Source: a virus
Lineage: Duplodnaviria > Caudoviricetes
Length of the DNA: 62,294 nucleotides
IMG/VR virus record: IMGVR_UViG_3300028608_000014
Span: 1-62,294 of that record
Strand: one strand, 5' to 3'
Shown in pieces: positions 1 through 62,294 of this stretch. A program made the translations under genes and the position numbers. The number at the start of each line of letters is the position of its first letter. Positions within the stretch are counted from its first letter, which is position 1. Below the pieces are notes generated by a model that was given only the letters and a program-made list of their open reading frames with translations, ran no database searches and had not been told where the DNA came from.

Positions 1-12
1 CCTGCCCCCGTC
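1..12. repeat. 12-bp terminal direct repeat CCTGCCCCCGTC (left copy)
   Basis: Identical to 62283-62294. Confidence 0.85.
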
Positions 13-120
13 CGGGCCCCCGCCTGCAGGCCTTCCCCGGGGCGGCCGGGCCGGCACCCCCCGCGCGGCGGGCGGCCTGGAAACTACCCCTTAAGAAGGC
101 CCCAGGGGGGCTAAACCCGG

Positions 121-149
121 GGGAATTTTCGGAAGATCCGAAAATTCCC
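121..149. repeat. Perfect 13-bp inverted repeat GGGAATTTTCGGA-AGA-TCCGAAAATTCCC
   Basis: Read directly from the sequence. Confidence 0.85.
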
Positions 150-163
150 GGCGCACCTGGACA

Positions 164-204
164 CAAAAACACCCCCCGGCGGATATGCCAGGGGGTGTTT
201 TTTG
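164..204 (-). terminator. Intrinsic terminator (probably bidirectional) ending the left-arm operon
   Basis: AAAAACACCCCC...GGGGGTGTTTTTT hairpin downstream of the last leftward gene. Confidence 0.75.
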
Positions 205-222
205 CGGTGCCCGTTGTGTGCC

Positions 223-507
223 TTAGCCCGGGGCCAGGGTCACAGTCCCGTTAGTGCTGAAGTGAGCATTCAGGGCCGCACTAATGGCCGCGTCTACAGT
301 GGTGTAATTCTCTGCAGTACGCGGGGCCGGGCACGATACCCGGACCTTATCGCCGTTGTATGTGGTGAGCATGTAGCCGCCGCCGTGAGGCAGGCTGTAG
401 CCTTCCGCCTCAAATACTGACATCCAGGGCGGGGACCATACCGTTAGCCGTTCCCGTTTGTGTGTGGAGCTGTAGTCATAGTCAACTATGACGCCGTAAA
501 CCGTCAT
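223..507 (-). CDS. hypothetical early protein
   Basis: 94-aa ORF in the tightly packed leftward operon. Confidence 0.7.
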   Translation of the reverse strand: MTVYGVIVDYDYSSTHKRERLTVWSPPWMSVFEAEGYSLPHGGGYMLTTYNGDKVRVSCPAPRTAENYTTVDAAISAALNAHFSTNGTVTLAPG

Positions 508-511
508 GGCT

Positions 512-733
512 CTAACCCTCGTTTACCGTCGCGGCGACGTCGCCTAGCTGCAGCTCACCCGGGCGGGCGTAGCCGGCGTAAAACTCACCCGCATATTCGG
601 CGTTCAAGTGGCACCGTTCCGGACTCCACAGAATCGCGGTTACCGCCGTGCCTGCAGGGAAGGCGTGGGGGGTGTCGTCCTGCCATTGCTGCAGGGTGAG
701 CGGGGCCAGGGTGACCGCGTGATAAATTTTCAT
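512..733 (-). CDS. hypothetical early protein (MKIYHAV...)
   Basis: ATG overlapping the upstream stop, CGGAAGGC RBS. Confidence 0.7.
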   Translation of the reverse strand: MKIYHAVTLAPLTLQQWQDDTPHAFPAGTAVTAILWSPERCHLNAEYAGEFYAGYARPGELQLGDVAATVNEG

Positions 734-1320
734 TGCTTCGGGCCTTCCGCCATTGTTTCGGTAATCATGTGTTTGATCCCCTGCAGGGTATCGGCCATAA
801 CCCGGCCATAGCCGGCGCTGTAGTTGGTGGCCACGTATAGCCCGCGCGTGTTGCGGGCGTCTATGTTCCACCCTTTGTACTCACGGGGGAACGGATGAGG
901 CACACGGGGGTTAGTAGATACCAGGGCACCCCCCTTGATAACCGGGGGGTCTTCGGGGGGTGTAAGCGGGGCCACTTTATCCGCCGTGACACGGTATAAG
1001 TGGTGCCCCCTAACCCGTATGTCATACACCCCGCCCGGATAGGCGCGCTCAATATAGCCCGTGGCCCACGCGCCATATTCCGGCGTTTCCTGCAGTAGTT
1101 TGACGGTCATTCCCGCCACATATGCCGGGGGATCTTCCGGGGCCGGGGCGGGATCTTCCGGAAATTCCGGGACACCCGCCCATTCCAAAAGTTCTACATC
1201 CCCGGCGTCTATGTGGGCGGCCAGGGCCTGCAGCTCGCTAATTTCGCCGTAGCTTATGCATTCCGCCTGTATCTGTGACCGGAGATACTCAAGCCGGGCG
1301 GGGATGTCTTCAGTGGTCAT
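730..1320 (-). CDS. hypothetical early protein
   Basis: 196-aa ORF, ACGGAAGGC RBS, 4-bp overlaps with neighbours. Confidence 0.8.
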   Translation of the reverse strand: MTTEDIPARLEYLRSQIQAECISYGEISELQALAAHIDAGDVELLEWAGVPEFPEDPAPAPEDPPAYVAGMTVKLLQETPEYGAWATGYIERAYPGGVYDIRVRGHHLYRVTADKVAPLTPPEDPPVIKGGALVSTNPRVPHPFPREYKGWNIDARNTRGLYVATNYSAGYGRVMADTLQGIKHMITETMAEGPKQ

Positions 1321-1685
1321 TGTTCCGGGCCTTCCGTCGTAAGCGCTGCAGCGGGCTTAACCCAATATTGGAATTTCCAGCCGCTGAAATAACTGTTCAC
1401 TTCCATCCGGGGGCCGTCACGCTTGACCCCGTGCGGCTTGATTAGAGCATCTACCCACTTCCGCAACACGTCGGCGGGCGGGCAGGACCACCAACGTAAG
1501 CCGGGTATCTCTTGCACATGCACATAGACGCGGCTAGATCCCGGCGTGTAGCTAATCCAAGTTTCAGTGTCGGGCAGGTACCCCGGGCCGGAGCTGGCCC
1601 GGATATGCCTAGCGGTCACCGGGGCGGGGGCTTCAGCGGGCACGGCGGGCACTGCAGCGGCCCCGGGCGTATAGTCCCGGCTCAC
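1317..1685 (-). CDS. hypothetical early protein
   Basis: GTG start, CGGAAGGC RBS, overlaps neighbours. Confidence 0.75.
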   Translation of the reverse strand: MSRDYTPGAAAVPAVPAEAPAPVTARHIRASSGPGYLPDTETWISYTPGSSRVYVHVQEIPGLRWWSCPPADVLRKWVDALIKPHGVKRDGPRMEVNSYFSGWKFQYWVKPAAALTTEGPEQ

Positions 1686-2281
1686 CGTTCCGGGCCTTCC
1701 GGCTTAGGTGCTGCAGCGGGGCGTATCTGTGAATAGTGGCCCGTGACATCAGTAAACGAGTAGTGAGCCGCGCCGCCGTCCAGGGCGGCTAGCGCGGCGT
1801 CAAGCCCGGCCACGTCACCGGGCGGGAAATAGCGGGCTAAGTCATGCCGGGCCAGGCCGGCCGCTACAGCCGCCGGGGGCTTAGCGCCGTGCGGCTCAAA
1901 CGTCCACACCTCATACCGGGCCGGGCCAGGGGCCTGCAGGCCTTCCGCTACTTTCATCCATTCCGGCCATGCGGCCATAAGATCCCGCGCGCCCTGCAGT
2001 GTGCCCCCGTCCCGGATAGTCTCACATATCAATTCCGCGCCGGGTGAGAGATAGTGATTAGCACCATTCCAGCGGACATAGGCACTCCCGGCACTCCCGG
2101 CATTCCCGTAGTTCACCACATAGACGCGTCGCCACTTCGGCGCGGGGCCACGGGTGCGCACCATGTAGCACGTTGGAATTTTCGGGCCGTAGCCCTTAAT
2201 CGCCTGCCCCGATAGGGGGGTGTCTGTAATTTTTGCGGCCGTAACGTCGCCGGCCTGCAGGTGCTTTAGATCTTCAGTCAT
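1682..2281 (-). CDS. hypothetical early protein (GYGxKIPT...WRRVY motif)
   Basis: Start set at MTEDL after ACGGAAGGCTAGG RBS. Confidence 0.75.
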   Translation of the reverse strand: MTEDLKHLQAGDVTAAKITDTPLSGQAIKGYGPKIPTCYMVRTRGPAPKWRRVYVVNYGNAGSAGSAYVRWNGANHYLSPGAELICETIRDGGTLQGARDLMAAWPEWMKVAEGLQAPGPARYEVWTFEPHGAKPPAAVAAGLARHDLARYFPPGDVAGLDAALAALDGGAAHYSFTDVTGHYSQIRPAAAPKPEGPER

Positions 2282-2285
2282 TGTC

Positions 2286-2681
2286 CTAGCCTTCCGTGGT
2301 GTCGTCGTCGTCGTCGTCGCCGTATGCCAGCGCCTCAAATTCTTCCGGCGTCAAAAATTTGTCCAGGCGCTCACTAACGCGCCTGCAGGCCTCAAATGTG
2401 CGATACGCGGCCCGGCTATCCGTGTCATAGCCGTATTCCCCCGCCCATTCCTCGAATGAACGCGCGTTGCGGTAGCCGTTGGCGTCATCGATCAAACACT
2501 CCAGTACTTCGGCGGCCGTAGGGGGCGTATTGGGCAGGCCTATGCCCTTATAAAACGGCACGGTGTAACTGTTGCCCCGTGCATTTTTCAGCGTGACTTT
2601 CCACCCGTTGTTAGGTGATCCCCATTCCGTATTTTCCGGGCCAGGTTTGGCCGTGGCGCTGAAGCCGTCCCATTTACTCAC
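2286..2681 (-). CDS. hypothetical early protein with acidic C-terminus
   Basis: GTG after CGGAAGGCTAG RBS; FEEWAGEYGYDTDSR motif, poly-Asp tail. Confidence 0.75.
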   Translation of the reverse strand: MSKWDGFSATAKPGPENTEWGSPNNGWKVTLKNARGNSYTVPFYKGIGLPNTPPTAAEVLECLIDDANGYRNARSFEEWAGEYGYDTDSRAAYRTFEACRRVSERLDKFLTPEEFEALAYGDDDDDDTTEG

Positions 2682-2685
2682 GGCG

Positions 2686-3105
2686 CTAGCCTTCCGGGTC
2701 TTCGGGGCGGGTAAATTCCGCGCGGTATGCATTGATAAACGGCAGGGCATACATTCGAGTACCCGCGCGCTTGAATCCTGCAGCGGCCAGGTAGGAATAT
2801 GCGCCCGCGTAGGGCTCACCGTCTTTAGTCCAGTCGCGGGGGGCCGTGACGCCTTCCCATAATTCGAGTTGTGCCACGGCGCGGCCTGCAGCTTCGGCGG
2901 CGGCTATCCGTTTTTCTTCGGTATCGAACCTGTTTTCGGGGGTGCTTAGCCGCCATTCCAACCATGCCAGCGCGGCGGCTAGCTTGACCCGTTCCCGCCC
3001 GTCTTCCGGCCATGCAACGGCGGCGCTCACTAAGGGCAAAATTTCATCCGGGGTCACGGTGACGCTGAAACTAGGCGCACCCCCGGCCCATTGCGGCCCC
3101 GTCAT
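2686..3105 (-). CDS. hypothetical early protein
   Basis: 139-aa ORF, operon packing. Confidence 0.7.
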   Translation of the reverse strand: MTGPQWAGGAPSFSVTVTPDEILPLVSAAVAWPEDGRERVKLAAALAWLEWRLSTPENRFDTEEKRIAAAEAAGRAVAQLELWEGVTAPRDWTKDGEPYAGAYSYLAAAGFKRAGTRMYALPFINAYRAEFTRPEDPEG

Positions 3106-3722
3106 GACTTCAGCGCGCCCATGCTTGCCAGGAACATTTCGGCGTCAAGCAATGACGGGTGAGCGCCTATCTCATGCCATGCAATGCCGCCGCCGGGCTC
3201 ACCGTCAAAACGGTAAACGGTGCTATCCGCAATGATGTAGCCCTCATTAGCGGGGGTGTAGGGCGCGCGGTAGGCACCCCGGATAATGTGGAATGACTCT
3301 AGCCCGCCGCGCCATTTGGTCACGGCGTTACTGCCGTAATTGGGCACCACGGGCGCGGCCTGCCCCCGTTTGGCCACAAAACGGACGGTCACGTTAGGCG
3401 CGCTGCAGGCCTTCCGTAGTGCCTCAATTGCGCCCGGCACGGTCCCGTCATAGTCAACCAGGACGGCCGAACCATAATCACGGCTAGGCTTAATCGGAAC
3501 GTCCAAACTAGGATCTTCCCATTTATGCGTGGGCACTTGCACGGTTGCATAGGGGCCGTCGTCCTGCAGCGAGACATAGACAAAACCAATTTTGAACGGC
3601 GGGCGCGTTTCCATCAGTGCCCATAGGGTAAAGCCCGCGACTAGGGCGGCCTCAAGAATGGGCACGATAACGGCGTCTACTATCCCGGCTAGCGGGTGTG
3701 TTGCGGGTGTTGCTTCAGTCAT
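3102..3722 (-). CDS. hypothetical early protein with an N-terminal hydrophobic segment
   Basis: Start MTEAT after ACACGGAAGGC RBS, directly downstream of a promoter. Confidence 0.75.
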   Translation of the reverse strand: MTEATPATHPLAGIVDAVIVPILEAALVAGFTLWALMETRPPFKIGFVYVSLQDDGPYATVQVPTHKWEDPSLDVPIKPSRDYGSAVLVDYDGTVPGAIEALRKACSAPNVTVRFVAKRGQAAPVVPNYGSNAVTKWRGGLESFHIIRGAYRAPYTPANEGYIIADSTVYRFDGEPGGGIAWHEIGAHPSLLDAEMFLASMGALKS

Positions 3723-3770
3723 GGCCCTGGGCCTTCCGTGTTGTGTGTTGGTGAGCGGGTGCATGCAACC

Positions 3771-3800
3771 ATTACAGCACCCTACGTGCGTAGGGTGCAA
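3771..3800 (-). promoter_or_regulatory. SigA-like promoter TTGCAC-N18-TGTAAT with CACCCTAC-N4-GTAGGGTG operator
   Basis: Motif repeated at 5672, 62133 and four rightward promoters. Confidence 0.75.
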
Positions 3801-3925
3801 GCCCTACAGCAAAAACGGGATACTGAAAACCAGGATCACTAGGAAAGTGGAGACTATGTGACTTAGCCGGGGTAGTATCCCCCCGTTACTGTCCGTGTGG
3901 TCACTCAAAAATGAGTGGTGCCGGC

Positions 3926-4267
3926 TCACGGTTCACCGGCACAATCGGCCCTAACCGTTGCTTGCACGTCGGGGGGAAGACTGGACCATTTAGCGGACTC
4001 ACGATAGGCCCGGCGGCGGTAGCCGGCCAGGTCATAGGCCGTTATCTCACTGGAGACCCCAAACCCCTGGGCGCTTGACGGGTGCTCACTCATGCCCCGA
4101 TACCAAAGCCAGGTATCGGCGTAAGTGGTGCCGGTGACGCGCTCACGATAGACGACGGTGTACCTATCCCACGTTTTACCGCCGTTGTCATAGATGGCCA
4201 GGACTCCCGGGGGGCAGTCGCCGTCCAGGAATTTTTTCGACTGACGGCGCGGGCTGTAGGCAGTCAT
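3926..4267 (-). CDS. hypothetical early protein (YDNGGKTWDRYTVV motif)
   Basis: 113-aa ORF overlapping the upstream stop. Confidence 0.75.
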   Translation of the reverse strand: MTAYSPRRQSKKFLDGDCPPGVLAIYDNGGKTWDRYTVVYRERVTGTTYADTWLWYRGMSEHPSSAQGFGVSSEITAYDLAGYRRRAYRESAKWSSLPPDVQATVRADCAGEP

Positions 4268-4491
4268 GCCGCTAGCCCTAGAGTGAGCAACGATTCTTGA
4301 CGCGAGCCCGCGCCGGCCGGGTGCATGTTGTTTATGTGCGCCTCACCCGTGAGCCATTCCCCTAGCGGCCCCCGGCGGTGAATCCACCACACATTAGCCT
4401 TAGGGTGCCGGTCCAGGACTTCCCATGTATCGGGGCTACCGTCCACCGTGACCGCCGCGCCGTGTTTGATGTCTTTTGCTTGCATTGCCAT
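4264..4491 (-). CDS. hypothetical early protein (MAMQAKDIK...)
   Basis: ACACGGAAGGC RBS. Confidence 0.7.
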   Translation of the reverse strand: MAMQAKDIKHGAAVTVDGSPDTWEVLDRHPKANVWWIHRRGPLGEWLTGEAHINNMHPAGAGSRQESLLTLGLAA

Positions 4492-4495
4492 GGCC

Positions 4496-4843
4496 CTAGG
4501 CCGCCTTCCGTGTGGTGTTTGAGTCCTGCCATTCCTGCAGTGTCTGCAGCACGGGCGCACACTTGACGCGCCGTTTACCGGGGCCGGGGATAGTCCGGGC
4601 CGATAGTTGTTTGAGTAGGGATTCAACGTTGATAGCCCCCCGGGAGACACCCCGGGCCGTTTTCCTATCCGGCGTAGTGTCCCCGTCCAGGGTGAGGAAA
4701 CACCTGAATGTTGTTCCGGGAATAGTCACTACATGAGTAGTGCCGGGGCCAGGCGCGAGCGGTTCAACGCGGCGGCCTAGGGGGTTAGGCGGGGCAGAAA
4801 ATGAGGAATAGCCGGGGCCGTAGTTGCGGGCTTTATACGACAT
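4496..4843 (-). CDS. hypothetical early protein
   Basis: CCGGAAGG RBS, 115 aa. Confidence 0.65.
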   Translation of the reverse strand: MSYKARNYGPGYSSFSAPPNPLGRRVEPLAPGPGTTHVVTIPGTTFRCFLTLDGDTTPDRKTARGVSRGAINVESLLKQLSARTIPGPGKRRVKCAPVLQTLQEWQDSNTTRKAA

Positions 4844-4862
4844 TTTGTGATCCTTCCGGGGG

Positions 4863-5069
4863 TTAGAAATTGAGTGAGCCTAGAGTCATGAGGGCGGCGG
4901 CCCCGCCTATTGCGGCGGCCCACTGCAGGGCGGGGCTAAGACGGCGGGCGGCGCGGTCCAGGTCACGGGATACCCGCGCGGCCGGCGCGCTAGTCCAGTA
5001 GTCACGGCGGGCGGCCCGGCGCGCTGCAGGGGACACCCGGCGGCGGCTCACACGGTGCCGGCGGCTCAC
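4863..5069 (-). CDS. small Arg-rich protein with a C-terminal hydrophobic segment
   Basis: GTGA overlap with the upstream gene. Confidence 0.55.
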   Translation of the reverse strand: MSRRHRVSRRRVSPAARRAARRDYWTSAPAARVSRDLDRAARRLSPALQWAAAIGGAAALMTLGSLNF

Positions 5070-5596
5070 GGGGTCACCTGCAGGCACTTAGTGATGGCCT
5101 CATCTTGCACGGCGGTAATCATGGCCCGCGCGGGGTAATAGTCCAGGGCCGTACTCATGACTTGTTGTTCCGTGTCCAGGGGCCGGGCGGGCGACTCCCA
5201 ATAATCCCCGGCGTCTATGCCGCCTAGTATTTCCTCAATACTGAATCGGCCTAGAGTCGCCGTGACCGTCACGCCGTAATAGTGCCAATCATCATTTTTC
5301 CAGGCGGCCAGGTCTTCCGGGTCATAGCATTCCAAGTCTTCCGGTGACCCGTCATAGTCGCGCCATATCTCATAGGTGAGAGTCACCCCGGCGTTAGTAT
5401 CCTGCAGCGTGTAAACGGCGTGCACGCGCTCACTGAAGATCAATTCAGCGGTGAAGCCCTGCAGCGCCTGCAGCACGGCCGCTACGTAACGCGCCGCTAT
5501 TAGGGCGTATTGGGCCGTGCGGCCTAGGGCGCGGTTAGCGCGGTAGATAGACGCCGGGCTAGTCCGGCGGGTGTCGGTCATATCAAAAGTGAGCAT
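5066..5596 (-). CDS. hypothetical early protein (MLTFDM...)
   Basis: ACACGGAAGGC RBS; first gene after the 5.69 kb promoter. Confidence 0.75.
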   Translation of the reverse strand: MLTFDMTDTRRTSPASIYRANRALGRTAQYALIAARYVAAVLQALQGFTAELIFSERVHAVYTLQDTNAGVTLTYEIWRDYDGSPEDLECYDPEDLAAWKNDDWHYYGVTVTATLGRFSIEEILGGIDAGDYWESPARPLDTEQQVMSTALDYYPARAMITAVQDEAITKCLQVTP

Positions 5597-5662
5597 TTTT
5601 CTAAGCCTTCCGTGTGGTGAGCGGTCCAGGCTGCAGGGGTGTAGAGCTGCAGGCCGTCCCCC

Positions 5663-5692
5663 CATGATGCGCCCTAGTTATGTAGGGTGCAA
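5663..5692 (-). promoter_or_regulatory. Promoter with TTGCAC -35 and CCCTAC-N4-CTAGGG operator
   Basis: Shares GGGCTTGCACCCTA with the 3771 and 62126 promoters. Confidence 0.7.
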
Positions 5693-6055
5693 GCCCCCAA
5701 AAAATACAGCTCTATATGCACGGCGGGGCAATTGTTCCAGGGTAAACCTGGCGGCAGGATGTAGGACGTCCTATGTCAGTAGGCCTGGCCGGGTGAGAAG
5801 CGTTCTCAACAGCAGGCCCGGCCGGCCAGGTCCGAGAGCCCGACTCTCACTTACCGAAGTTCATGATTTTGCATGGGAAAGAACCCTAAAGAACCCAAAA
5901 CCCGGGGAAACCCGGGGAAAACTGCGGAAATCTTGATCCAATCTTGAGAAACAGGTAGTAGGGCATTGATAAACCTGAGTACCTATGGAACTCTCTAGGT
6001 ACTGGCCCTGTAAGTACAGGCCTACACACCATCTCGCAACAGGAGCACACCCCAC

Positions 6056-6421
6056 ATGGTCTTGATTAACGACGGCGCGCACTTGTCAGTCATCGAGGGG
6101 ATGAAGGACAAGGGCGAGTGCGCCGGAGGCTGCAACCACGACGCACGGTCAGGCCCCAAAGAACCCCTGTCCCCGCAAAACCCGGCAGGCACCGGCCGTT
6201 TTGATGAGGCCCTGAAGCAGCTGCAGATCGCCAAGCTGGCGCACGAGCACCGCAAACTCCGCACCGAGGCGGAGAACACGCTACGGGATCTGGACTTCAA
6301 ACTGACCCTGGAAAAGCTGACCTATGAGGCCTCGCTGGACGGTGTGCCCGTCCGGCACATCACCGCCTCCCATGACCAGGCATTCGAGGCCCTGGAGGCC
6401 GCGCAGCAAAGGATTGCCTGA
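6056..6421 (+). CDS. hypothetical protein
   Basis: ACAGGAGCAC RBS, 121 aa. Confidence 0.7.
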   Translation: MVLINDGAHLSVIEGMKDKGECAGGCNHDARSGPKEPLSPQNPAGTGRFDEALKQLQIAKLAHEHRKLRTEAENTLRDLDFKLTLEKLTYEASLDGVPVRHITASHDQAFEALEAAQQRIA

Positions 6422-6422
6422 G

Positions 6423-6671
6423 ATGACCGCCCTGCCTCCGGTCGGGGACGCGCCGGACATCCTGCTCCGGCTCAACCGGGCACACGAGGCCATGCACGAT
6501 GAGATCAACGCGCACCAGAGCGCCTGCAACGCGGCCCTGGCGGATCTCTGGAAGAAGCATGCGCCGTTCATCACCGAGGCCAAGAGCGTGTTTCTGCAGG
6601 TCCAGGCGGAGGCCTACCGCGCAGGCTTCACCGACGATGAGATCAACACGGCGCTGCCCGAGTGTGACTGA
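6423..6671 (+). CDS. hypothetical protein (MTALPP...)
   Basis: ATG immediately after the upstream stop; core-type codon usage. Confidence 0.7.
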   Translation: MTALPPVGDAPDILLRLNRAHEAMHDEINAHQSACNAALADLWKKHAPFITEAKSVFLQVQAEAYRAGFTDDEINTALPECD

Positions 6672-6675
6672 GGGG

Positions 6676-6740
6676 ACACCCCCCTTGGTAAATCTCAAAG
6701 AGGCACACCCTCCTGGGTAAATTTCAAAGCGACACACCCC
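6676..6740. repeat. 29-bp tandem direct repeat (two copies plus a partial third)
   Basis: ACACCCCCCTTGGTAAATCTCAAAGAGGC / ACACCCTCCTGGGTAAATTTCAAAGCGAC, 24/29 identical. Confidence 0.8.
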
Positions 6741-6862
6741 GTATCAATTACTGCCTGCGCCGTCTTATTGATTATTCTGTGTACTGGTGTCACTGTTGCT
6801 TTACTGCACACAGGTAAAGAGGCAGGAGCGAAACACATACACACAGAGGGAGCAACCATCAC

Positions 6863-7516
6863 ATGAGCAGTGATATGACGGCGCTACAGACACTTCAGTT
6901 CCAGTGGAGAAATTTCGCCATTGACCGGGGCAAGGCGCGGCGCGAGGTGCAGGCCGATGTGGACATCAAGCAGGAGCAGATGAATGCCCTGCGCGAGGAG
7001 ATCCTGGCCCTGGAGCAGAACTTCGAGGAGAAGTGGAAGAACCGCAAGACCGAACTGCGCAGCGCCCTGGATGAGGCCGTGAAGGCGGAGCTGCGCAGCG
7101 GACGTTCGGCCCAGTCGGTGCTGCGCGAACTCGGCAGCCAGAACACGGTCTGGATGTACGGCCTCGCGGCCGAGGTCAAGGAGGAGGGCGGCCAGCCGGC
7201 CGCGCCCGACTTCCAGCCGGTGCCCGATGCGGAGATTGAAGGCGTCGAGTGGCTGCACCATGACCACACGGGCGTGCACCGCTGGCTGCTCTCGGCCGAC
7301 GGCAAATACATCAAGCGCTACGGTGCCGAGGGCTCGGACTTCGACGGCCAGTCCTTTGTCTGTAACCGGGACTACGCCTTTGTGGCAGGGTCCAAGCCCC
7401 TCTATGAGGCGACGGCCAAGGCCGAGATGGGCAAGCGGGTGGCCATGCTGGAGAAGCTGCTCTCGGGCACCTACGCCGGCAAGATCAAGCTCGGGGACAA
7501 CCGCTGGGTGGCCTAA
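6863..7516 (+). CDS. hypothetical protein with an N-terminal coiled coil
   Basis: 217 aa, GGGAGCA RBS, followed by a terminator. Confidence 0.85.
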   Translation: MSSDMTALQTLQFQWRNFAIDRGKARREVQADVDIKQEQMNALREEILALEQNFEEKWKNRKTELRSALDEAVKAELRSGRSAQSVLRELGSQNTVWMYGLAAEVKEEGGQPAAPDFQPVPDAEIEGVEWLHHDHTGVHRWLLSADGKYIKRYGAEGSDFDGQSFVCNRDYAFVAGSKPLYEATAKAEMGKRVAMLEKLLSGTYAGKIKLGDNRWVA

Positions 7517-7534
7517 AGAAATTGAGTGGCGGGG

Positions 7535-7568
7535 AGACCCCCTTCGGTAAATCCGGAGGGGGTCTTTT
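7535..7568 (+). terminator. Intrinsic terminator
   Basis: AGACCCCCTTCGG...CCGGAGGGGGTCT followed by TTT. Confidence 0.7.
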
Positions 7569-7608
7569 GCTGCCCACAATCCTTTGCAGTAGGGCTGTGG
7601 ATTGCATC

Positions 7609-7637
7609 TTGTAGATACCCTACGTGTGTAGTATGTT
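7609..7637 (+). promoter_or_regulatory. Promoter TTGTAG-N17-TATGTT with CTAC-GTGT-GTAG operator
   Basis: Shared operator; upstream of a CTACACACCAGGAGCA RBS. Confidence 0.6.
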
Positions 7638-7674
7638 GGACGCATACACCAGCACTACACACCAGGAGCACAGC

Positions 7675-7857
7675 ATGAGCTACGATCCCCGCGACGACGA
7701 TTACGAGGCCACCCCCATCGTCCGCGAGCAGTGCGGGCATGAGGACGTGGCCGGCGGCTGGTGCCAGAACTGCGGGGACGCCATCGAGGACTGGGAGCCC
7801 TCCGATGCGCAGATCTTCGCTCAGTACGGCCAGACCATGGAGCCGAGGGCAGCATGA
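7675..7857 (+). CDS. small acidic Cys/His (zinc-ribbon-like) protein
   Basis: CGH...CQNC motif, strong RBS. Confidence 0.75.
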   Translation: MSYDPRDDDYEATPIVREQCGHEDVAGGWCQNCGDAIEDWEPSDAQIFAQYGQTMEPRAA

Positions 7858-7952
7858 AGATCCGTATCCCTACCACGTACCCCTGACATTAAAACCGTAA
7901 CCCCCGTCACACGCTGTGACAAAGCGATAAACCTTCCAATGATTGGAGTAAC

Positions 7953-8171
7953 GTGACTAGACTCATCTCTCAACAGCTCGTTGACCTGCTTGTTGAGGAA
8001 CGCAAGCGGCAGGGACTCTCCCAGATGGAAGTGGCAGTCCGCATGGGAGCGGCAACATCGTGGATACAGGCAATCGAATACAACCAGCAAGCCGGGCGGC
8101 AGGTCTCGGCCTTCCAGCGCTACGCCGACGCACTCGGGGTGGACCTGGAGGTCACCATCGCCCGGCCCTAG
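7953..8171 (+). CDS. XRE-family helix-turn-helix regulator
   Basis: RKRQGLSQMEVAVRMG...IQAIE...YADALG pattern. Confidence 0.85.
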   Translation: MTRLISQQLVDLLVEERKRQGLSQMEVAVRMGAATSWIQAIEYNQQAGRQVSAFQRYADALGVDLEVTIARP

Positions 8172-8188
8172 ACTCCAGGGGGAGAAGT

Positions 8189-8512
8189 ATGGGCAACAGG
8201 TCAGGTTGGGAGGCCCGCCGTTTCATGAGAGGTGAAGCGGTCTGGGTCTCCCCTTCGGTGAGCAGCCAGTGGCTGTCCGATGATGAGGCAGTGGTCCTGG
8301 AGGATGTCGGCGCGGGGTATCTTGTGCTGCAGGAGTCGGAGCGTGTCCCGAGCCATGGGCTCGGGCATTTCGTCTGTGACCGGGAGCTGTCCGAACTGTG
8401 CGAAGGCGCACGGCCCGTAATGGTGCGGGTCAAGGTCCGGCGGCTGCGGGAGTTCACGCTCACCCTGGTGCCGCCGGGGGATGCCCGGTGGTGGAGCGCC
8501 CGACATAACTAG
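8189..8512 (+). CDS. hypothetical protein
   Basis: GGGGGAG RBS before MGNRS. Confidence 0.6.
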   Translation: MGNRSGWEARRFMRGEAVWVSPSVSSQWLSDDEAVVLEDVGAGYLVLQESERVPSHGLGHFVCDRELSELCEGARPVMVRVKVRRLREFTLTLVPPGDARWWSARHN

Positions 8513-8524
8513 GCACTGCGCAAG

Positions 8525-8556
8525 AAAAGGCCTCCAGTGTGGCGGGGGCCTTTTTT
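8525..8556 (+). terminator. Bidirectional intrinsic terminator
   Basis: AAAAGGCCTCC...GGGGGCCTTTTTT. Confidence 0.75.
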
Positions 8557-8584
8557 CGTGCCATGGTGTTTCTCCGAGTTTTCA

Positions 8585-8614
8585 TTGAACACTACGCGCG
8601 TAGTGTTGTACGCT
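8585..8614 (+). promoter_or_regulatory. Promoter TTGAAC-N18-TACGCT with AACACTAC-GCGC-GTAGTGTT operator
   Basis: Perfect 8-bp arms around the shared CTAC-N4-GTAG core. Confidence 0.75.
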
Positions 8615-8667
8615 CTGTGTATTGATCTGCTGTAACAGCATCAACCTACACACAGGAGCACAGCATC

Positions 8668-9377: not shown

Positions 9378-9490
9378 GCCGGCCGGAGACCTACATCATC
9401 GAGTGGACCGGAAACATCCAGGTCCACCAGCCCGTGAGGAACAGGGTGGAAGTCTCCGGCCAGGAACACGGCGAGGCAACGGAGCAGTGA
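9374..9490 (+). CDS. small hypothetical protein
   Basis: GTGA overlaps at both ends. Confidence 0.5.
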   Translation: MSRPETYIIEWTGNIQVHQPVRNRVEVSGQEHGEATEQ

Positions 9491-11215: not shown

Positions 11216-11237
11216 TGACCTGTCGGAAAGAAAAGTA

Positions 11238-11267
11238 TTGACACCATGCACGTAGGGTCTGTAACGT
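11238..11267 (+). promoter_or_regulatory. Promoter TTGACA-N18-TAACGT with a degenerate operator (CCAT-GCAC-GTAGGG)
   Basis: Consensus -35; right half of the shared operator. Confidence 0.7.
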
Positions 11268-14861: not shown

Positions 14862-14905
14862 GCACCACCTAAACAAGAAACCAGAAACAAAGGAAACAGA
14901 TCACC

Positions 14906-59339: not shown

Positions 59340-60002
59340 CTATGCCGCCTCGGCGTCCTCGGCCGTCAGATACTCCAGCACCTGCGCCCCGAGGTACTGC
59401 GTGTACGCCGGCGGGATGGATTCCCGCAGCCCGTCCCGGGTCATCCAGTCGATGCCCATGGCTGCCTTGGCCTTCTCCACGCCGGAAAAGTTTCCGACAA
59501 CGTGCATCATCTCGCCGTCCACGGGCCTGCGGCCCATCTTGGTGGTCCGGGTGGTGTGTTCCGGGTGAGCCGGGGCAACCAGCGGCAGGCTGGACTCGAA
59601 CAGGCGGTGCCGGTAGGTGCCGAGCCCGAACATGGCCCCGCACAGCTCGATGGGCTCGACCAGCGGGGCCCCGGGCACGTTCTCGATGATGTAGGGCACA
59701 CCGAGGAAGTCCAGCAGCTCGCGGGTGGGCCCGATGAGGTCGGGGTGGTCGTTGGCCATGATCTTCTGCGCGTTCGTGTGGGCCTGGCACGGCGGGGAGG
59801 CGTGCACCGCGTCGTATTCGTGTCCGTGCCGGCGCAGGAACTCCAGCGCATCGCCCTGGTGGAACGTGAACGGGTAGCGGGGCTGGGGGAACAGGTCCAC
59901 GCCGGTCACCTCGAAGCCTGCGAGGTGGTAGCCCATTCCGGCACCGCCCTGGCAGCAGAACAGATCCAGGAGCCTCCGGCGGGCAAAAGGGCTGGCATCC
60001 AT
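59340..60002 (-). CDS. short DNA cytosine-5 methyltransferase
   Basis: LDLFCCQGG (motif I), ASPPCQ (IV), IENV (VI), RHRLF (VIII), ESIPP (X); AAGGAG RBS. Confidence 0.88.
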   Translation of the reverse strand: MDASPFARRRLLDLFCCQGGAGMGYHLAGFEVTGVDLFPQPRYPFTFHQGDALEFLRRHGHEYDAVHASPPCQAHTNAQKIMANDHPDLIGPTRELLDFLGVPYIIENVPGAPLVEPIELCGAMFGLGTYRHRLFESSLPLVAPAHPEHTTRTTKMGRRPVDGEMMHVVGNFSGVEKAKAAMGIDWMTRDGLRESIPPAYTQYLGAQVLEYLTAEDAEAA

Positions 60003-60123
60003 GGGGCTCCTTGGTCTGTTGGCCTGTACTGGGAGTCTACCAGGGCATAACGACACAGGTGTTGTACAAGGGGGCCCTTGCCCTGCGTATATATGCAGCG
60101 CCCGGTTTTTCAGGGGGAGGGGT

Positions 60124-60423
60124 TTGTCCACAGGCTGTGGAAAATGATCCAGGCATTCAAGCGGACTTGAATCGTGGCCGGCGCGTTCAAGTGAAGCGGC
60201 ATTTGACTAGAAAATGTGGATAACTTTGTCGCCCTGCGGAAAAAGTGCCGCGCGGTGAAAGTTTGTCGAAGATTTGGCCAGCGCCCCCTGGCCGGCCGCG
60301 CAAAACTGATTCAGGCCTACCGTTTATTTGTTGCCTGCCATGCAACTAAGAGTCAGCTCTCATGCCGGGCTGCAGTGCATAGTGATACATATTCCTGTAT
60401 AAAAATTCCGCCGATAATCCACA
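60124..60423. promoter_or_regulatory. DnaA-box cluster
   Basis: TTGTCCACA 60124, TGTGGAAAA 60136, TGTGGATAA 60215, TAATCCACA 60415. Confidence 0.6.
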
Positions 60424-60976
60424 TTATGTCAACCTGTAAATTATCGCTGTATATATACAGCCCTGCAGGGTCAGGGGTTACAGGGCCCTGTTTACCAATA
60501 CAAACAACAGCACAAAAATTTTCCCATTTTCCAGGAAAGCCCTGTGCGCGTTTCTCCGGCCCTGTGACTGCCGTTAGCTATCACCATACCACCATGGCCC
60601 CGGCGTGCCTGCAGCGGCCCGCGTAGGGCCTGCCGCGGGCATGAGGGGGACACTACGCCCATAGGGCAGGGCAGGGGGGACACCCTACAGGCATAGGGGC
60701 CGGGGGAATGCGTTAGGCATGGGCGGATATGGTACTGCAGGGGCCGTTTTTGCAGGCCCTAGCCTAGATCCCCCTATGCCCCTGTAGATCTTTATTTTTT
60801 TCTACAGACATACATACCTAAAGGGGGTTAGGGGCAGGGGCTCGCGCATTACGGCGTGTCTGTAACGCATTCCCGTATGCCTTACACATTCCTCCGGCCT
60901 GTCTCCCCTGCCTTCCCCCTATGTTCCGCATTCCTTACACCCTACGCACATGACACCCCCTCACGAGGGGCACAAC

Positions 60977-61008
60977 AAAACACCCCCTGCAGGTGTCTGC
61001 AGGGGGTG
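60977..61008 (-). terminator. Terminator of the right-arm operon
   Basis: CACCCCCTGCAG-N4-CTGCAGGGGGTG followed by TTTTG. Confidence 0.75.
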
Positions 61009-61035
61009 CATGGGGGGTGCAATGGGGGGTGCTGT

Positions 61036-61389
61036 CTACGGGTTCAATTCCCGATATTTTGCCGCTACGGCGCGCGCCACGTCCGCTACGGGTGTCCCCG
61101 GTTCAATGTCCCATGATGGCGGGTCACTGTCCCTAGGCTCACCCTCACGGGTGAGAGTGTCGGGGCCGTAATACAGGTCTTCCGTGGTGAAACTGGACAG
61201 ATGCGGATAGGTCCAGTCATAGCTACCGGGGCCGATTAGCAACGGCTCACTACAGCCGGGGCCGTTGTCCACCATGAGGGCGGCCGTCCCCCCGCCCATT
61301 TGTTCCACCGTGGCAGTCAGGCCTTCCGCCTGCAGGGCGGTAATCAGCTCGCGCGCCTGAAACGTGCAATCCATGTCTTCAGTGTCCAT
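61036..61389 (-). CDS. hypothetical acidic early protein
   Basis: ACGGAAGGCTAGG RBS. Confidence 0.75.
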   Translation of the reverse strand: MDTEDMDCTFQARELITALQAEGLTATVEQMGGGTAALMVDNGPGCSEPLLIGPGSYDWTYPHLSSFTTEDLYYGPDTLTREGEPRDSDPPSWDIEPGTPVADVARAVAAKYRELNP

Positions 61390-61393
61390 TGTC

Positions 61394-61546
61394 CTAGCCT
61401 TCCGTAATGCGGCAGACAGTCGCCGCCTTGAGATCTTTCATGGTGTGGAGATAGTAGCGGCGACGTGCGCGAGCTTCGGCCCGACTCGTGCAATACATGC
61501 GTTCTACGGTGCCGTTATCGAACGTGAGCAAGACAAACCATTCCAT
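61394..61546 (-). CDS. small hypothetical protein (50 aa, MEWFVLL...)
   Basis: AAGGGG RBS; fills the gap; ends in TEG like other arm genes. Confidence 0.6.
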   Translation of the reverse strand: MEWFVLLTFDNGTVERMYCTSRAEARARRRYYLHTMKDLKAATVCRITEG

Positions 61547-61558
61547 GACGTTTCCCCT

Positions 61559-62083
61559 TTAGAATTCCGGGCGGCCTGCAGCTAACCACGCGCTAACGCG
61601 GTTAGATGCGGGATTGAAAATAGCGACATTGGCACTCATGCGCGCTTCGGCCTCATCTTCCGATTCATCATCAGTCGGGCCGTCATACCATTCTTCCGCC
61701 AACATGTTGGCGTCGATGTAGTCATGCAATTCCGAAAAACTGGAGACGGTAACGGGAATGATCCCTACGGCGATATAGCTCCTAATTTCCACTTGCATGG
61801 CGAACACAACGGCGTCAATAATATCGGCGGGGCGCATGGGCTTTACCCTTACCAATTCTTCGGCGTCATATTCAACCGCGCCGCGCGTGGTGTCGATAGT
61901 GGTGCACGGGCCGTGCTGCCACGTCTTGACGATGGGGGCGGGCGTCTTGCGGGTGAGCCGTTCGCCCTCAATCTGGACATCGTAAATTTTCATGCCGGGC
62001 TTCAGGTCTTCAGCGGCTACGCGCTTGCCTGTAATGGCTTGCTTGGAAAGCCCGGCGTGGGGGGTGGGATCTTTAGCGAGCAT
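61559..62083 (-). CDS. hypothetical early protein (SFSELHDYIDANM motif)
   Basis: Start MLAKD downstream of the 62126 promoter. Confidence 0.75.
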   Translation of the reverse strand: MLAKDPTPHAGLSKQAITGKRVAAEDLKPGMKIYDVQIEGERLTRKTPAPIVKTWQHGPCTTIDTTRGAVEYDAEELVRVKPMRPADIIDAVVFAMQVEIRSYIAVGIIPVTVSSFSELHDYIDANMLAEEWYDGPTDDESEDEAEARMSANVAIFNPASNRVSAWLAAGRPEF

Positions 62084-62125
62084 TTCGGGTCCTGCTTTCA
62101 GGTGTAGGGGGTGTGTATGGACACC

Positions 62126-62155
62126 ATTAGAACACCCTACTTGCATAGGGTGCAA
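62126..62155 (-). promoter_or_regulatory. Promoter TTGCAC-N18-TCTAAT with CACCCTAT-N4-GTAGGGTG operator
   Basis: Near-copy of the 3771 promoter. Confidence 0.75.
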
Positions 62156-62282
62156 GCCCGTGTGAAGAATGGTTTTTATGGCATACCGTGCCCCGCCGTG
62201 CCTACGGGCAGGCCCCGTTTTCTCCCGTGCAACACGCTGCAGCTGCCCCATGCTGCAGGGTGCCTATTGTGCTGCCCTGCCC

Positions 62283-62294
62283 CCTGCCCCCGTC
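62283..62294. repeat. 12-bp terminal direct repeat (right copy)
   Basis: Identical to 1-12. Confidence 0.85.

Follow-up and report, generated by a model that had tools for sequence, protein, structure and literature searches.

Do the two ends of this phage genome obey rules of their own at the DNA level, and what might read them? The window, that is, the whole stretch of DNA analysed, is a complete metagenome-assembled soil actinophage genome of 62,294 bp. In what follows, "arms" denotes positions 1-5900 and 60150-62294, and "core" the remainder. The first-pass annotation had proposed that the arms are under a DNA-level regime unlike that of the core and are rich in the palindrome CTGCAG.

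Termini and layout of the arms

The first 12 bases of the window are identical to the last 12 (1..12 and 62283..62294). This direct repeat is probably a filled-in cohesive (cos) end; no long terminal repeat was seen in the window. A contig from a second assembly (X1, the probable source run) matches positions 1-8799 exactly, with no differences at the left junction, and terminates at position 1; this assembly is built from the same reads as the window and hence is not an independent sample. From the terminal repeat and this contig end, the arms are probably the true genome termini. An independent sample (X2) contains identical pieces within the arms and over the left junction (5712-6143). The X1 and X2 matches show that the arm/core pattern is not an assembly artefact.

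The compartment edges are sharp, at ~6100 and ~60100. The left one falls at a divergent intergenic region (5597..6055) containing the CTGCAG sites 5631 and 5647. The left arm has 14 small, tightly coupled genes in one or more minus-strand operons (223..5596), with GC3 values of 0.65-0.69 and the ribosome-binding site CGGAAGG in nine of them. Directly downstream of the last of these genes is a 16-nt inverted repeat (165..202), rich in G+C and with runs of A and T on its flanks, which looks like a two-way terminator. Within 61036..62251, the right arm has three minus-strand genes (61036-61389, 61394-61546, and 61559-62251), next to an 885-bp non-coding stretch (60151..61035) with six CTGCAG sites and A+T-rich patches. 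No Pfam match was found for the arm proteins, those of the 14 left-arm genes included. Junction cassettes recur between arm genes.

A putative promoter/operator motif, so read from its sequence, is confined to the arms and occurs in three minus-strand copies: upstream of the first left-arm gene (5669..5696), at 3777..3804, and in the right arm (62132..62159). The second copy consists of a -35-like TTGCAC, an inverted repeat CACCCTAC..GTAGGGTG, and a -10-like TGTAAT. The real start of gene 61559-62251 may be at 62083, downstream of the third copy. Traits of the compartment include leftward operons, this common motif, GGAAGG as the ribosome-binding site combined with stop/start coupling, and low GC3. 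The two arms are one conserved compartment of presumably early or accessory operons, whose small orphan genes flank the probable cohesive ends. Their GC3, ribosome-binding site, and k-mer usage are unlike those of the core, and their codon choice runs to rare codons ending in A or T. Comparisons of k-mers, codons, and palindromes bear out the proposal that the arms are under a regime of their own.

CTGCAG and other palindromes in arms and core

An exact count gave 99 CTGCAG sites in the window, 39 in the arms (4.85/kb) and 60 in the core (1.11/kb), an approximately five-fold difference in density. The left-arm array comprises 29 sites (24..5652) at a mean spacing of 201 bp, and the right-arm array 10 sites (60370..62258). 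The counts made by eye in the first-pass annotation (29 in 1-5700, 10 in 60200-62294, and 8 in 9000-15000) were exact. Spacing is Poisson-like, with a coefficient of variation of 0.98 in the left arm and no periodicity seen; the left arm also has a 970-bp gap free of the hexamer (3565-4534). The density stops at the operon/compartment boundaries (~6100 and ~60100) and does not fade with distance from the ends.

Within the arms, 29 of the 39 sites are in called coding sequences and 10 in non-coding DNA. Because one site, in a gene overlap, counts for two genes, there are 30 gene-site incidences, distributed 18, 10, and 2 per frame; 12 of the 30 are out of the Leu-Gln frame. The intrinsic terminator at 60980..61009 (minus strand, 13 pairs) has a stem made of two CTGCAG copies. 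The sites are therefore, as had been described, in different frames, in non-coding DNA, and in a terminator stem.

Against a synonymous shuffle, the arm coding sequences held 30 copies versus 5.6±2.1 expected, a number reached in 0 of 1000 shuffles. Persistence under an amino-acid- and dinucleotide-preserving shuffle was a test set beforehand. The excess persisted when amino acids, codon usage, and dinucleotides were all kept (30 versus 7.6±1.8; reached in 0 of 200). In arm non-coding DNA, 10 copies compare with 0.49 under a first-order Markov model, and the maximum across 500 simulations was 4. CTGCAG is positively enriched in the arms beyond what their amino acids, codons, and dinucleotides account for; this confirms the observation and makes it stronger than in its first description. 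Core coding sequences held 48 copies versus 37.5 expected, 43 of them in the Leu-Gln frame. In the core, the hexamer is neither avoided nor enriched beyond noise, and a putative reader of the motif would therefore do no visible harm or good there.

A second test set beforehand was the presence of the excess in the arms of a related phage. One diverged relative (L078) was available at the DNA level, other homologues being available as proteins only. It is syntenic with the window across eight core genes (38-71% identity), and has 20 CTGCAG in a 3.9-kb arm versus 7 in a 9-kb core. Its arm coding sequences hold 17 copies versus 3.7±1.6 expected (reached in 0 of 1000), and its arm proteins five Leu-Gln pairs versus 1.0 expected, all five encoded CTGCAG. 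TCGA occurs twice in this arm versus 63 times in the core, and the arm genes carry GGAAGG ribosome-binding sites. The first arm gene is the sole homologue of a window arm gene, and in this orthologous pair one CTGCAG site has the same offset (nt 513); the other arm genes are non-homologous, and the operator is unlike that of the window. Recurrence of the trait in so distant a relative makes the excess look maintained rather than accidental.

The excess is almost certainly neither an assembly chimera nor a mere consequence of codon usage, Leu-Gln content, or base composition. In favour of such an origin, CTG and CAG are both frequent codons, 43 of the 48 core sites are simply Leu-Gln codon pairs, and in two CTGCAG-rich viral contigs (L035 and L042) pentamer content explains most of the counts (46 versus 31.0 and 40 versus 31.7). 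However, the arms exceed every shuffle, 12 of 30 incidences are outside the Leu-Gln frame, the Leu-Gln pair is itself in five-fold excess, the independent sample and the second assembly show the same junctions and arms, and L078 repeats the pattern.

The closest named phages, Arthrobacter phage Amigo and cluster AO (genus Amigovirus), are distantly syntenic with the window: 27 window proteins match Amigo at 28-52% identity with order kept. They have the same architecture as the window, with small rightward genes, lower GC3, and raised CTAG at both ends. Amigo differs in its long terminal repeats, its tRNA genes, and its 53% G+C. It also differs in sharing no arm-gene homologues with the window and in avoiding CTGCAG almost completely (1 in 59 kb). 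Other relatives and neighbours likewise avoid the hexamer, which is absent from CosmicSans (46.6 kb) and from 13 of the 24 viral loci fetched.

CTAG had also been claimed to be enriched in the arms, and this claim did not hold. There are 27 copies in 1-6000, 5 in the right arm, and 18 in the 54-kb core. Base composition predicts 28.6 in the arms, where 31 were found, and 178 in the core, where there were 19, a tenfold depletion; a dinucleotide-preserving shuffle of arm coding sequences gave 21.8 for an observed 27. CTAG is thus "not depleted" in the arms rather than enriched. TCGA, which had been described as depleted, occurs 6 times in 1-6000 versus ~10 times per 2 kb in the core. The depletion stands against a codon shuffle (9 versus 18.8), whereas dinucleotide content accounts for the counts (9 versus 9.8). 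TCGA, GTAC, and GATC each occur in the arms at a frequency 2-4 times below that of the core. GGCGCC, CCGCGG, and GGGCCC are purged from the arms as they are from the core (in the arms, each 0 versus 8-10 expected). Avoidance in core coding sequences is marked for GGCGCC (0 versus 56), GTCGAC (0 versus 28), CTCGAG (0 versus 18), and CCGCGG (6 versus 50). Restriction-site avoidance of the kind seen in phages is thus strong in this genome, and CTGCAG in the arms runs the opposite way.

Footprint in proteins and specificity for the full hexamer

Arm proteins contain 18 Leu-Gln pairs versus 3.6 expected, and every one is encoded by CTGCAG, although CTG accounts for 38% of the Leu codons and CAG for 61% of the Gln codons. 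Among 12 homologues of the protein encoded by 5066-5596, two of the four Leu-Gln positions of the window are Leu-Asp or Leu-Glu in the four most distant, and a third is Leu-Gln in the window alone. In 17 homologues of the protein encoded by 1682-2281, the last residue of the "GTLQ" position is Glu or Asp in 14, Lys in 1, and Gln in 2. The Leu-Gln totals of the two homologue sets, 33 versus 5.4 and 34 versus 6.0 expected, come from related sequences and are not independent counts. Sites have been gained repeatedly, also via amino-acid replacement (Glu/Asp to Gln after Leu), and the density is high enough to have altered the arm-encoded proteins. The protein alignments already hint at repeated site gain within the lineage after acquisition.

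These alignments bear on a historical explanation, in which the excess records cassettes imported from phages sharing the same dialect and is not maintained here. The differences in GC3, ribosome-binding site, and k-mers between arms and core would fit such imports. So would the occurrence of arm protein homologues in viral contigs of 31-70% G+C, and the CTGCAG-free gap (3565-4534), where one gene has homologues of 61% identity in CTGCAG-free Rhodococcus phages. Nevertheless, this explanation seems unlikely: arms and core have the GGCGCC, CCGCGG, and GGGCCC purge in common, site gains are at differing positions in close homologues, with one unique to the window genome, and the trait persists in L078, whose arm genes and operator are not those of the window. 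Import would also leave the excess in the donor lineage itself to be explained.

Half-sites (CTGCAH/DTGCAG) occur once in the arms versus 85 times in the core. With the sites frozen, one-base variants were 0 versus 5.6 expected at the outer positions, 3 versus 12.2 at positions 2/5, and 22 versus 8.6 at the centre (CTNNAG). The half-site and variant counts show that the full hexamer matters. Simple selection for site number would not predict this combination of centre variants in excess with no outer ones.

Complementary words shift together in the arms: CGA (z -7.8) with TCG (-5.6), TGA (+4.1) with TCA (+3.9), and TAG (+4.9) with CTA (+6.4). CTGCAG sites are also found past terminators and upstream of promoters. 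Both observations place the signal at the level of double-stranded DNA. They make it very improbable that CUGCAG acts in early transcripts, forming helices or serving as an endoribonuclease target that times mRNA decay, for which RegB of T4 is a model. The arrays do coincide with transcription units, and five close site pairs can form hairpins, one of them being the terminator. However, non-palindromic words deviate equally on both strands, sites lie past terminators and upstream of promoters as just described, and core genes do not avoid the motif.

Possible roles and comparison with known systems

We tentatively favour, as possible rather than probable, an arm-restricted iterated palindrome under selection that is read as double-stranded DNA by a putative sequence-specific protein. 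CTGCAG is kept at about one site per 200 bp in all frames and in non-coding DNA, and selection would act on its density rather than on position. The full hexamer would be recognised on double-stranded DNA by a specific protein. The array might recruit or soak up a CTGCAG-specific binding or modifying protein, which in turn might mark, shield, or time the arm compartment. This guess at a role is made because arm DNA follows other restriction-related rules than the core, like T5 first-step-transfer DNA. The T5 first-step-transfer (pre-early) region is terminal DNA with small early genes and its own restriction-site rules; it is noted for lacking sites and not for having one in excess. The scarcity of TCGA, GTAC, and GATC in the arms fits the T5-like idea of the first-pass annotation, under which this DNA would meet restriction in conditions of its own. 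In contrast, no long terminal repeat was seen in the window, one site type is enriched instead, and scans of the arm proteins gave no homologue of a T5 pre-early gene. Enrichment that tracks operon boundaries and not distance from the ends also weakens the argument from the order of DNA entry. The earlier interpretation is partly supported, in the separate regime of the arms and their positive enrichment; the dense binding or methylation platform, or decoy, that it proposed is a candidate role.

Alternatively, CTGCAG might serve as an orientation-free, Chi-like signal for end protection or recombination, either taming an end-entering helicase-nuclease of the AdnAB or RecBCD type or feeding an exonuclease and Sak4-like annealing system encoded by the phage. 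In both cases, the DNA beside the cohesive ends would be kept intact or recombinogenic. The arrays are on both sides of the probable termini, their Poisson-like spacing is expected if density matters, and genes for an exonuclease and a Sak4-like annealing protein are present in the genome. The motif is retained although relatives differ in their arm genes, and the repeated junction cassettes also agree with this role. It is doubtful, however, since known Chi sites are asymmetric, the density stops at operon boundaries with no fall-off from the ends, and distant relatives and many phages with homologous arm genes are without any CTGCAG. Chi and DNA uptake sequences are asymmetric, are spread over the whole host genome, and have known machines as readers. 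The CTGCAG arrays resemble them in that density counts over exact position, any coding frame is tolerated, and codon and amino-acid choice is shaped; they differ in being palindromic and region-limited.

A small cytosine-5 DNA methyltransferase gene of core-like composition adjoins the right arm (59340..60131, minus strand; start at 60131 or 60002). It matches phrog_363 (E 2.6e-42), with SPPCQ and ENV motifs in the alignment, and its homologues are named DNA cytosine methyltransferase or bear PF00145. It is the only methyltransferase in the genome, and the family of small C5 enzymes to which it belongs is very common. Two other carriers of the family, Amigo and contig L007 (0.21/kb), avoid CTGCAG, which counts against an interpretation by methylation.

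The gene raises the alternative of a molecular drive with no present function, in which methylation-linked or other sequence-biased repair keeps making the palindrome and wins only under weak protein and codon constraint, that is, in the arms, as has likewise been proposed for cyanobacterial HIP1. Elhai 2015 (PMC4390886) ties iterated palindromes to cognate methyltransferases and postulates that methylation-dependent mismatch repair creates them. The absent half-sites, the methyltransferase gene beside the arm, and the mild core excess (48 versus 37.5) agree with a drive. We nevertheless regard it as improbable. The gains documented in protein alignments, Glu/Asp to Gln, would in the simplest case be changes of GAG into CAG. 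These would be G-to-C transversions at the site centre, unlike the T:G correction expected of patch repair. Moreover, centre variants are in excess and not removed, other carriers of the methyltransferase family avoid the site, and no Vsr-like gene turned up in Pfam, PHROGs, or NCBIfam scans that covered ~50 of the window proteins.

The selected palindrome that we favour is similar in several respects to HIP1 (GCGATCGC) and other highly iterated palindromes of cyanobacteria, as described by Elhai 2015 (PMC4390886) and Xu et al. 2018 (PMC5861425). Both are short G+C-rich palindromes that exceed expectation many-fold, occur in every reading frame as well as in non-coding DNA, and are maintained beyond codon usage, with an informative pattern of one-base variants and a proposed methyltransferase link. 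HIP1 is genome-wide in a cellular chromosome, whereas CTGCAG is enriched in ~8 kb of a phage genome, ends at operon boundaries, and shows no periodicity in its spacing. According to Elhai 2015 (PMC4390886), one-base variants of HIP1 are biased to the first and last positions; those of CTGCAG are biased to the centre.

Differences between early and late codon usage have been reported in phages (Mioduser et al. 2017, PMC5683454), and the codon set of the arm genes likewise differs from that of the replication and structural genes. Here, however, the shift is strand-symmetric at the k-mer level and accompanied by the excess of a specific hexamer, and so it is not just translational tuning.

CTGCAG sites and near-sites in the arms

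In the two arms (1-5900 and 60150-62294), CTGCAG occurs at 39 sites in 8.0 kb (4.85/kb), compared with 60 sites in the 54.3 kb of the core (1.11/kb). Base composition predicts 2.6 sites in the arms. An exact count gave 29 sites in 1-5700, 10 in 60200-62294 and 8 in 9000-15000, which are the same numbers that had been counted by eye in the first-pass annotation. For the statistics, we called 17 genes in the arms, every one of them on the minus strand, from open reading frames, GC3 and ribosome-binding sites. Their coding sequences hold 30 site incidences, whereas synonymous-codon shuffles gave 5.6 ± 2.1 (0 of 1000 reached 30). The excess also survived a shuffle preserving both the amino acid sequence and every dinucleotide (7.6 ± 1.8; 0 of 200). 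It should be mentioned that the start of the gene at 61559-62251 is possibly at 62083, which would shift one site and one Leu-Gln pair to the non-coding DNA. The coding sequences of the core were near neutral for CTGCAG (48 vs 37.5; z 2.8), like TGGCCA and GACGTC, and most of their sites are Leu-Gln codon pairs.

The incidences in the arm genes are distributed over the three reading frames as 18 (CTG-CAG), 10 and 2. In addition, the 1566 nt of non-coding arm DNA contain 10 sites, with 0.49 expected, and the stem of a 13-pair terminator is formed by two of the CTGCAG sites. The earlier description of sites lying in different frames, in non-coding DNA and in terminator stems thus agrees with the counts. 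As an alternative, the sites might serve a role at the RNA level, such as the stem just described would bring to mind. In comparison with the codon shuffle, however, words and their complements deviate jointly in the arms: CGA/TCG and GGAG/CTCC are reduced, and TGA/TCA and TAG/CTA are increased. Such a joint deviation of non-palindromic words points to double-stranded DNA rather than to mRNA or translation.

The sites are spaced in a Poisson-like way, on average 201 bp apart (coefficient of variation 0.98). Clustering at gene ends was rejected, the fifths of gene length holding 7, 7, 4, 4 and 8 sites. A wider 8-bp motif was also rejected: the flanks are just G/C-rich, and CCTGCAGG accounts for 10 of the 39 arm sites. 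The only long site-free gap of the left-arm array is at 3565-4534 (970 bp). It includes the gene at 3926-4267, whose homologues (61% identity) lie beside ArdA and HNH genes in Rhodococcus phages with zero CTGCAG. This gap may be a more recent import.

Half-sites (CTGCAH/DTGCAG) number 1 in the arms and 85 in the core. The near-sites were analyzed by freezing the real CTGCAG sites and shuffling the remainder of each gene. Variants at positions 1/6 were absent (0 vs 5.6 ± 2.0) and those at positions 2/5 were few (3 vs 12.2 ± 3.0), whereas variants at the two central positions were in 2.6-fold excess (22 vs 8.6 ± 2.5). In the arms, CTACAG and CTGTAG add up to 11, compared with 15 in a core seven times as large. 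The excess of CTNNAG may be explained in part by sites that have decayed or by a reader tolerant of the centre. Deamination of cytosines in CCGCGG was rejected as a source of sites: intermediates of that route are lacking, and the gains that are seen require a transversion at the site centre. As a second motif, GTGAGC/GCTCAC (27 in the arms, 28 in the core) was rejected, being largely explained by its pentamers (16.4 expected).

The enrichment is also seen in the arm proteins. Among the 2151 residues of the arm proteins there are 18 Leu-Gln pairs, with 3.6 expected, and each of the 18 is encoded by CTGCAG, although CTG makes up 38% of the Leu codons and CAG 61% of the Gln codons. In the core, Leu-Gln occurs 57 times (46.7 expected), and 43 of the 57 pairs are written CTGCAG. 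Since the amino acid sequence was held constant in the shuffles, they understate the effect. In the family of the 5066-5596 protein, the "VLQALQ" of the window corresponds to LD..LD or LD..LE in the four most distant of 12 homologues, and the LQ of "TLQD" is found in the window alone, the 11 homologues covering the position having mostly E. Of the 17 homologues in the family of the 1682-2281 protein, 14 have E or D at the "GTLQ" position, one has K and two have Q. These protein comparisons imply that the site was altered at its centre, GAG to CAG being the simplest change. Leu-Gln is also in excess in these two sets of homologues (33 vs 5.4 and 34 vs 6.0 expected), whose sequences are related, so that the counts are not independent.

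The arm of a diverged relative

Among the IMG/VR scans, only an alignment-based one found a true relative; this is L078, a portion of a viral contig of 15.3 kb. Eight of its core genes are syntenic with those of the window at 38-71% identity and are followed by an orthologue of the first left-arm gene (62.5%). From this orthologue onward, L078 has 20 CTGCAG in 3.9 kb, compared with 7 in its 9 kb of core, and TCGA occurs 2 and 63 times, respectively. The arm coding sequences of L078 contain 17 sites, whereas 3.7 ± 1.6 are expected (0 of 1000), in frames of 5, 9 and 3. The excess is therefore present in the arm of a related phage as well. TCGA is absent from these coding sequences (0 vs 8.7), and all five of their Leu-Gln pairs (1.0 expected) are encoded by CTGCAG. 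The arm genes also have the same ACGGAAGGC...ATG initiation cassettes as those of the window.

The remaining arm genes of L078 have no homologue in the window, and the intergenic inverted repeat differs. In the orthologous pair, one site is at the same offset (nt 513), and the other three sites of the window gene are lineage-specific. The enrichment of the L078 arm, with its different genes, ties the trait to the compartment: judged from the DNA of the one relative compared, it is a property of the compartment rather than of individual genes, and it has survived the turnover of genes. A signature inherited from a gene pool has to be weighed here, and with it the idea of a recently acquired foreign island. 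The composition of the arms does differ from that of the core, and composition-based tools would flag as foreign what is in fact conserved in the phage. A foreign island would lack the selective signatures of the resident genome and be absent from relatives, whereas the arms share the resident purge of GGCGCC, CCGCGG and GGGCCC with the core and the same kind of arm is found at the same place in L078.

At 9001-12882 of L078, CCCGGG and GGCGCC occur more often than in codon shuffles (12 vs 6.0 and 10 vs 4.7), while GGCGCC is absent from the window. The choice of palindromes that accumulate in arms may depend on what is restricted by the host.

Phages more distant than L078 show the reverse. Amigo (an Arthrobacter phage of cluster AO) has 1 site in 59 kb and CosmicSans 0 in 46.6 kb, and 13 of the 24 viral loci carrying homologues of two window arm proteins have zero CTGCAG in 12-20 kb. 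A DNA search of the phage collection for near relatives gave no match, and that for distant relatives gave a sole match of 190 bp, in Rhodococcus phages. In IMG/VR, carriers of the N-terminal domain of the 730-1320 protein are widespread, and none is closely related to the window; the 61559-62251 protein led to four distant loci and the terminase to one 5.8-kb contig without arms. The 3102-3722 protein, a 19-nt junction cassette and P0122 had no match there. One metagenome scan was without a match and the other gave only partial matches of 41-67%; a scan of the genome collection with the terminase gave none.

A hairpin pattern was found at 43 loci of IMG/VR, of which L035 and L042 were the richest in CTGCAG. 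These are unrelated contigs (46% and 55% G+C) with 3.3-3.4 CTGCAG/kb along the whole fetched length, and L035 is very rich in TGCA (206 in 14 kb). They were rejected as instances of the same phenomenon. Their sites are mostly accounted for by the CTGCA/TGCAG pentamers (46 vs 31.0 and 40 vs 31.7 expected), and the case is a different, compositional one.

Termini, operons and other words of the arms

The window (62,294 bp) was recovered from soil metagenomes as a complete assembly; among the sequencing runs listed for it, no RNA dataset appeared. Twenty-seven of its proteins match those of Amigo at 28-52% identity, in the same order and on the opposite strand; the terminase is 49% identical. The core contains a replication module (helicase, exonuclease, Sak4-like annealing protein, SSB, primase, dNMP kinase and DNA polymerase), structural genes, HTH regulators, a small cytosine-5 methyltransferase, and a ParA-like gene followed by a ribbon-helix-helix-like gene. 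Neither tRNA genes nor Rfam families were found in the window. The ParA-like gene and the small gene after it (51949-52868), which has weak CopG/HicB-like matches, look like a type Ib partition pair. Among the window proteins covered by a non-exhaustive scan, no integrase was found. Given this and the partition-like pair, the phage may persist as a plasmid prophage.

The ends carry an identical 12-nt direct repeat (1-12 and 62283-62294), probably filled-in cohesive ends, whereas Amigo, among the nearest named phages, has long terminal repeats. In a separate assembly of the probable source run, a contig matches 1-8799 without difference and stops exactly at position 1. The repeat and this stop suggest that the arms are likely at the true termini. 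Beyond the 12 nt, the only other 14-mers shared by the ends belong to one 19-nt junction cassette, though short-read assembly may have collapsed a repeat. Identical pieces from an independent sample lie within an arm and across the arm/core junction at 5712-6143, so that the arms are not an assembly chimera. CCCTGCCCC-type repeats are seen at 62275-62294, with inverted copies about 1.5 kb inward in non-coding DNA of the right arm (60660-60685 and 60823-60839). They may be candidate terminase-binding repeats.

A strand-symmetric 4-mer log-odds score switches sharply at ~6100 and ~60100. GC3 is 0.62-0.70 in the arm genes and mostly 0.8-0.95 in the core, and the arm genes make heavy use of ATA, CTA, AGT, ACT, TAT, GAA, CAA and AAA codons. 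Their ribosome-binding site is CGGAAGG(C), with stop/start coupling, whereas that of the core genes is mostly AGGAGC or GGGAGC. In 223-5596 of the window and in 9659-12880 of L078, the arm genes are chained by ACGGAAGGC, 8-12 nt and ATG, often as ATGA or after TAG, and many arm proteins therefore end in ...EG, ...TEG or ...EGPEQ. Copies of these cassettes and of the adjoining 3' ends recur in different genes, as at 1317-1355 and 1682-1720, a pattern suggestive of exchange at gene junctions. Neither the arm proteins nor the methyltransferase matched a Pfam or NCBIfam family.

A motif of ~28 nt is found in the arms only, on the minus strand at 3777-3804, 5669-5696 and 62132-62159, with a weaker copy at 60680-60698. 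It consists of TTGCAC, the inverted repeat CACCCTAC..GTAGGGTG and a TNTAAT-like hexamer. Judging from this arrangement, it is probably an operator-controlled promoter defining an arm regulon. From the position of the copy at 62132, a start at 62083 is suggested for the gene at 61559-62251. Scans with consensus promoters gave matches no higher than the shuffle level.

CTAG, which had been regarded as enriched in the arms, is there at its expectation; it is the core that is depleted of it, tenfold. The depletion of TCGA in the arms stands against the codon shuffle and disappears once dinucleotides are fixed. Per kb, TCGA occurs 1.24 times in the arms and 5.40 times in the core, GTAC 0.99 and 2.82, and GATC 2.24 and 4.81. 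CTAG clusters are also seen in the small-gene regions of four actinophage contigs (L007, L008, L015 and L016), and the ends of Amigo have 14 and 7, and 11 and 7, CTAG per 2 kb, compared with mostly 0-4 per 2 kb elsewhere. As these clusters indicate, the relaxed avoidance of CTAG in the arms is more general than the CTGCAG trait.

Many six-base palindromes are avoided to an extreme degree throughout the window. In the arm coding sequences, GGCGCC, CCGCGG and GGGCCC are each absent where 8-10 are expected, a strong purge shared with the core, in which GGCGCC (0 vs 56), GTCGAC (0 vs 28) and CCGCGG (6 vs 50 expected) are affected. CTCGAG, GAGCTC, GGATCC, GGCGCC, GTCGAC, CACGTG and CGATCG have zero copies in all 62 kb, and CGGCCG, TGGCCA, GACGTC and CAGCTG are not avoided.

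Putative readers and known systems

These results establish that the CTGCAG enrichment is real, specific, restricted to the arm compartment and, as far as the comparison with L078 goes, evolutionarily persistent, that it is a feature of double-stranded DNA, and that it is strong enough to override protein sequence. The first-pass annotation had proposed a binding or methylation platform, or a decoy. Selection on the density of CTGCAG seems to be favoured, and the putative reader would be a hexamer-specific DNA-binding or DNA-modifying protein. This preference is based on the gains, which include amino acid replacements and, as implied by the protein alignments, transversions; on the sites in non-coding DNA; on the missing half-sites; and on the persistence of the trait with new genes. 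A Chi-like end or recombination signal is a rival to such a density reader. The terminal location of the arms would suit an end signal, but a Chi-like signal is an asymmetric word with orientation bias, whereas CTGCAG is its own reverse complement.

The first-step-transfer DNA of coliphage T5 meets host nucleases under conditions unlike those for the rest of the genome. The arms resemble it in that their restriction-site content differs from that of the core, TCGA, GTAC and GATC being rarer. This scarcity of 4-bp palindromes in the arms, not in the core, fits the idea that arm DNA, as in T5, would meet host nucleases under different conditions. The CTGCAG enrichment itself tracks operon boundaries, which makes a case built on entry order weaker. 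The T5-type region is in a long direct terminal repeat, whereas the ends of the window share 12 nt, and no family of the T5 pre-early genes A1, A2 and dmp was found among the Pfam/PHROG matches of the 17 arm proteins.

A fuller reading can be given only tentatively, and we consider it rather doubtful. A clade of soil actinophages would keep a terminal early compartment in its own DNA code, in which incoming genes are rewritten or selected for CTGCAG about every 200 bp and for loss of TCGA, despite the amino acid cost. A putative protein would read the array as a density signal, making it a region-restricted phage counterpart of HIP1 or Chi that decides what becomes of the DNA first seen by the host, by nuclease or restriction protection, timed silencing or licensed recombination of cassettes. 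Phage genomes are known for purging short palindromes, yet this one purges many and piles up one in a defined compartment, strongly enough to alter proteins, as does its deeply diverged relative. With arm and core in one molecule, an internal control is built in, and the phage offers a small test case for the function of iterated palindromes. A reader protein, should there be one, would reveal how regions of a single phage genome stay under different defence-related rules, and would thereby add an organising principle for phage genomes. In full-text literature searches, no report of CTGCAG or any other palindrome enriched in part of a phage genome was listed.

HIP1, the highly iterated palindrome of cyanobacteria, is described by Xu et al. 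(2018, PMC5861425) as a hyper-abundant motif without an established function, which occurs in every frame as well as in non-coding DNA and whose conservation exceeds that of codon usage; what it is for is, according to them, a question still open decades after its description. The CTGCAG array is similar in being many-fold over expectation (39 vs 2.6 by composition, 30 vs 7.6 in the strictest shuffle) and enriched in all frames and non-coding DNA. A HIP-type motif is genome-wide, whereas CTGCAG falls from 4.85/kb in the arms to 1.11/kb in the core. Because of this restriction, and because no cognate methyltransferase is known, the array is filed as working like HIP1 and not as a member of the class.

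A repair drive linked to methylation, as proposed for HIP1 by Elhai (2015, PMC4390886), would be a further rival to selection on density. A small C5 methyltransferase does adjoin the arm (59340-60131). As the writer of CTGCAG it was set aside, since the two other carriers of the family examined, Amigo and L007, avoid the site, which also argues against it as a cognate enzyme of the HIP1 type. The family is also very large: it has more than 8000 matches, the best 120 of them at 64-79% identity, and prophage-like copies in Rhodococcus and Mycobacteroides are included. For both reasons the enzyme is a weak candidate. In Amigo, the methyltransferase gene (49053-49754) is one gene from the homologue of window gene 6863-7516. 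With the window drawn as a circle, the entire block of arms, the genes at 6056-6800 and the ends come between the two. Relative to gene order, termini and arms are thus placed differently in the window and in Amigo.
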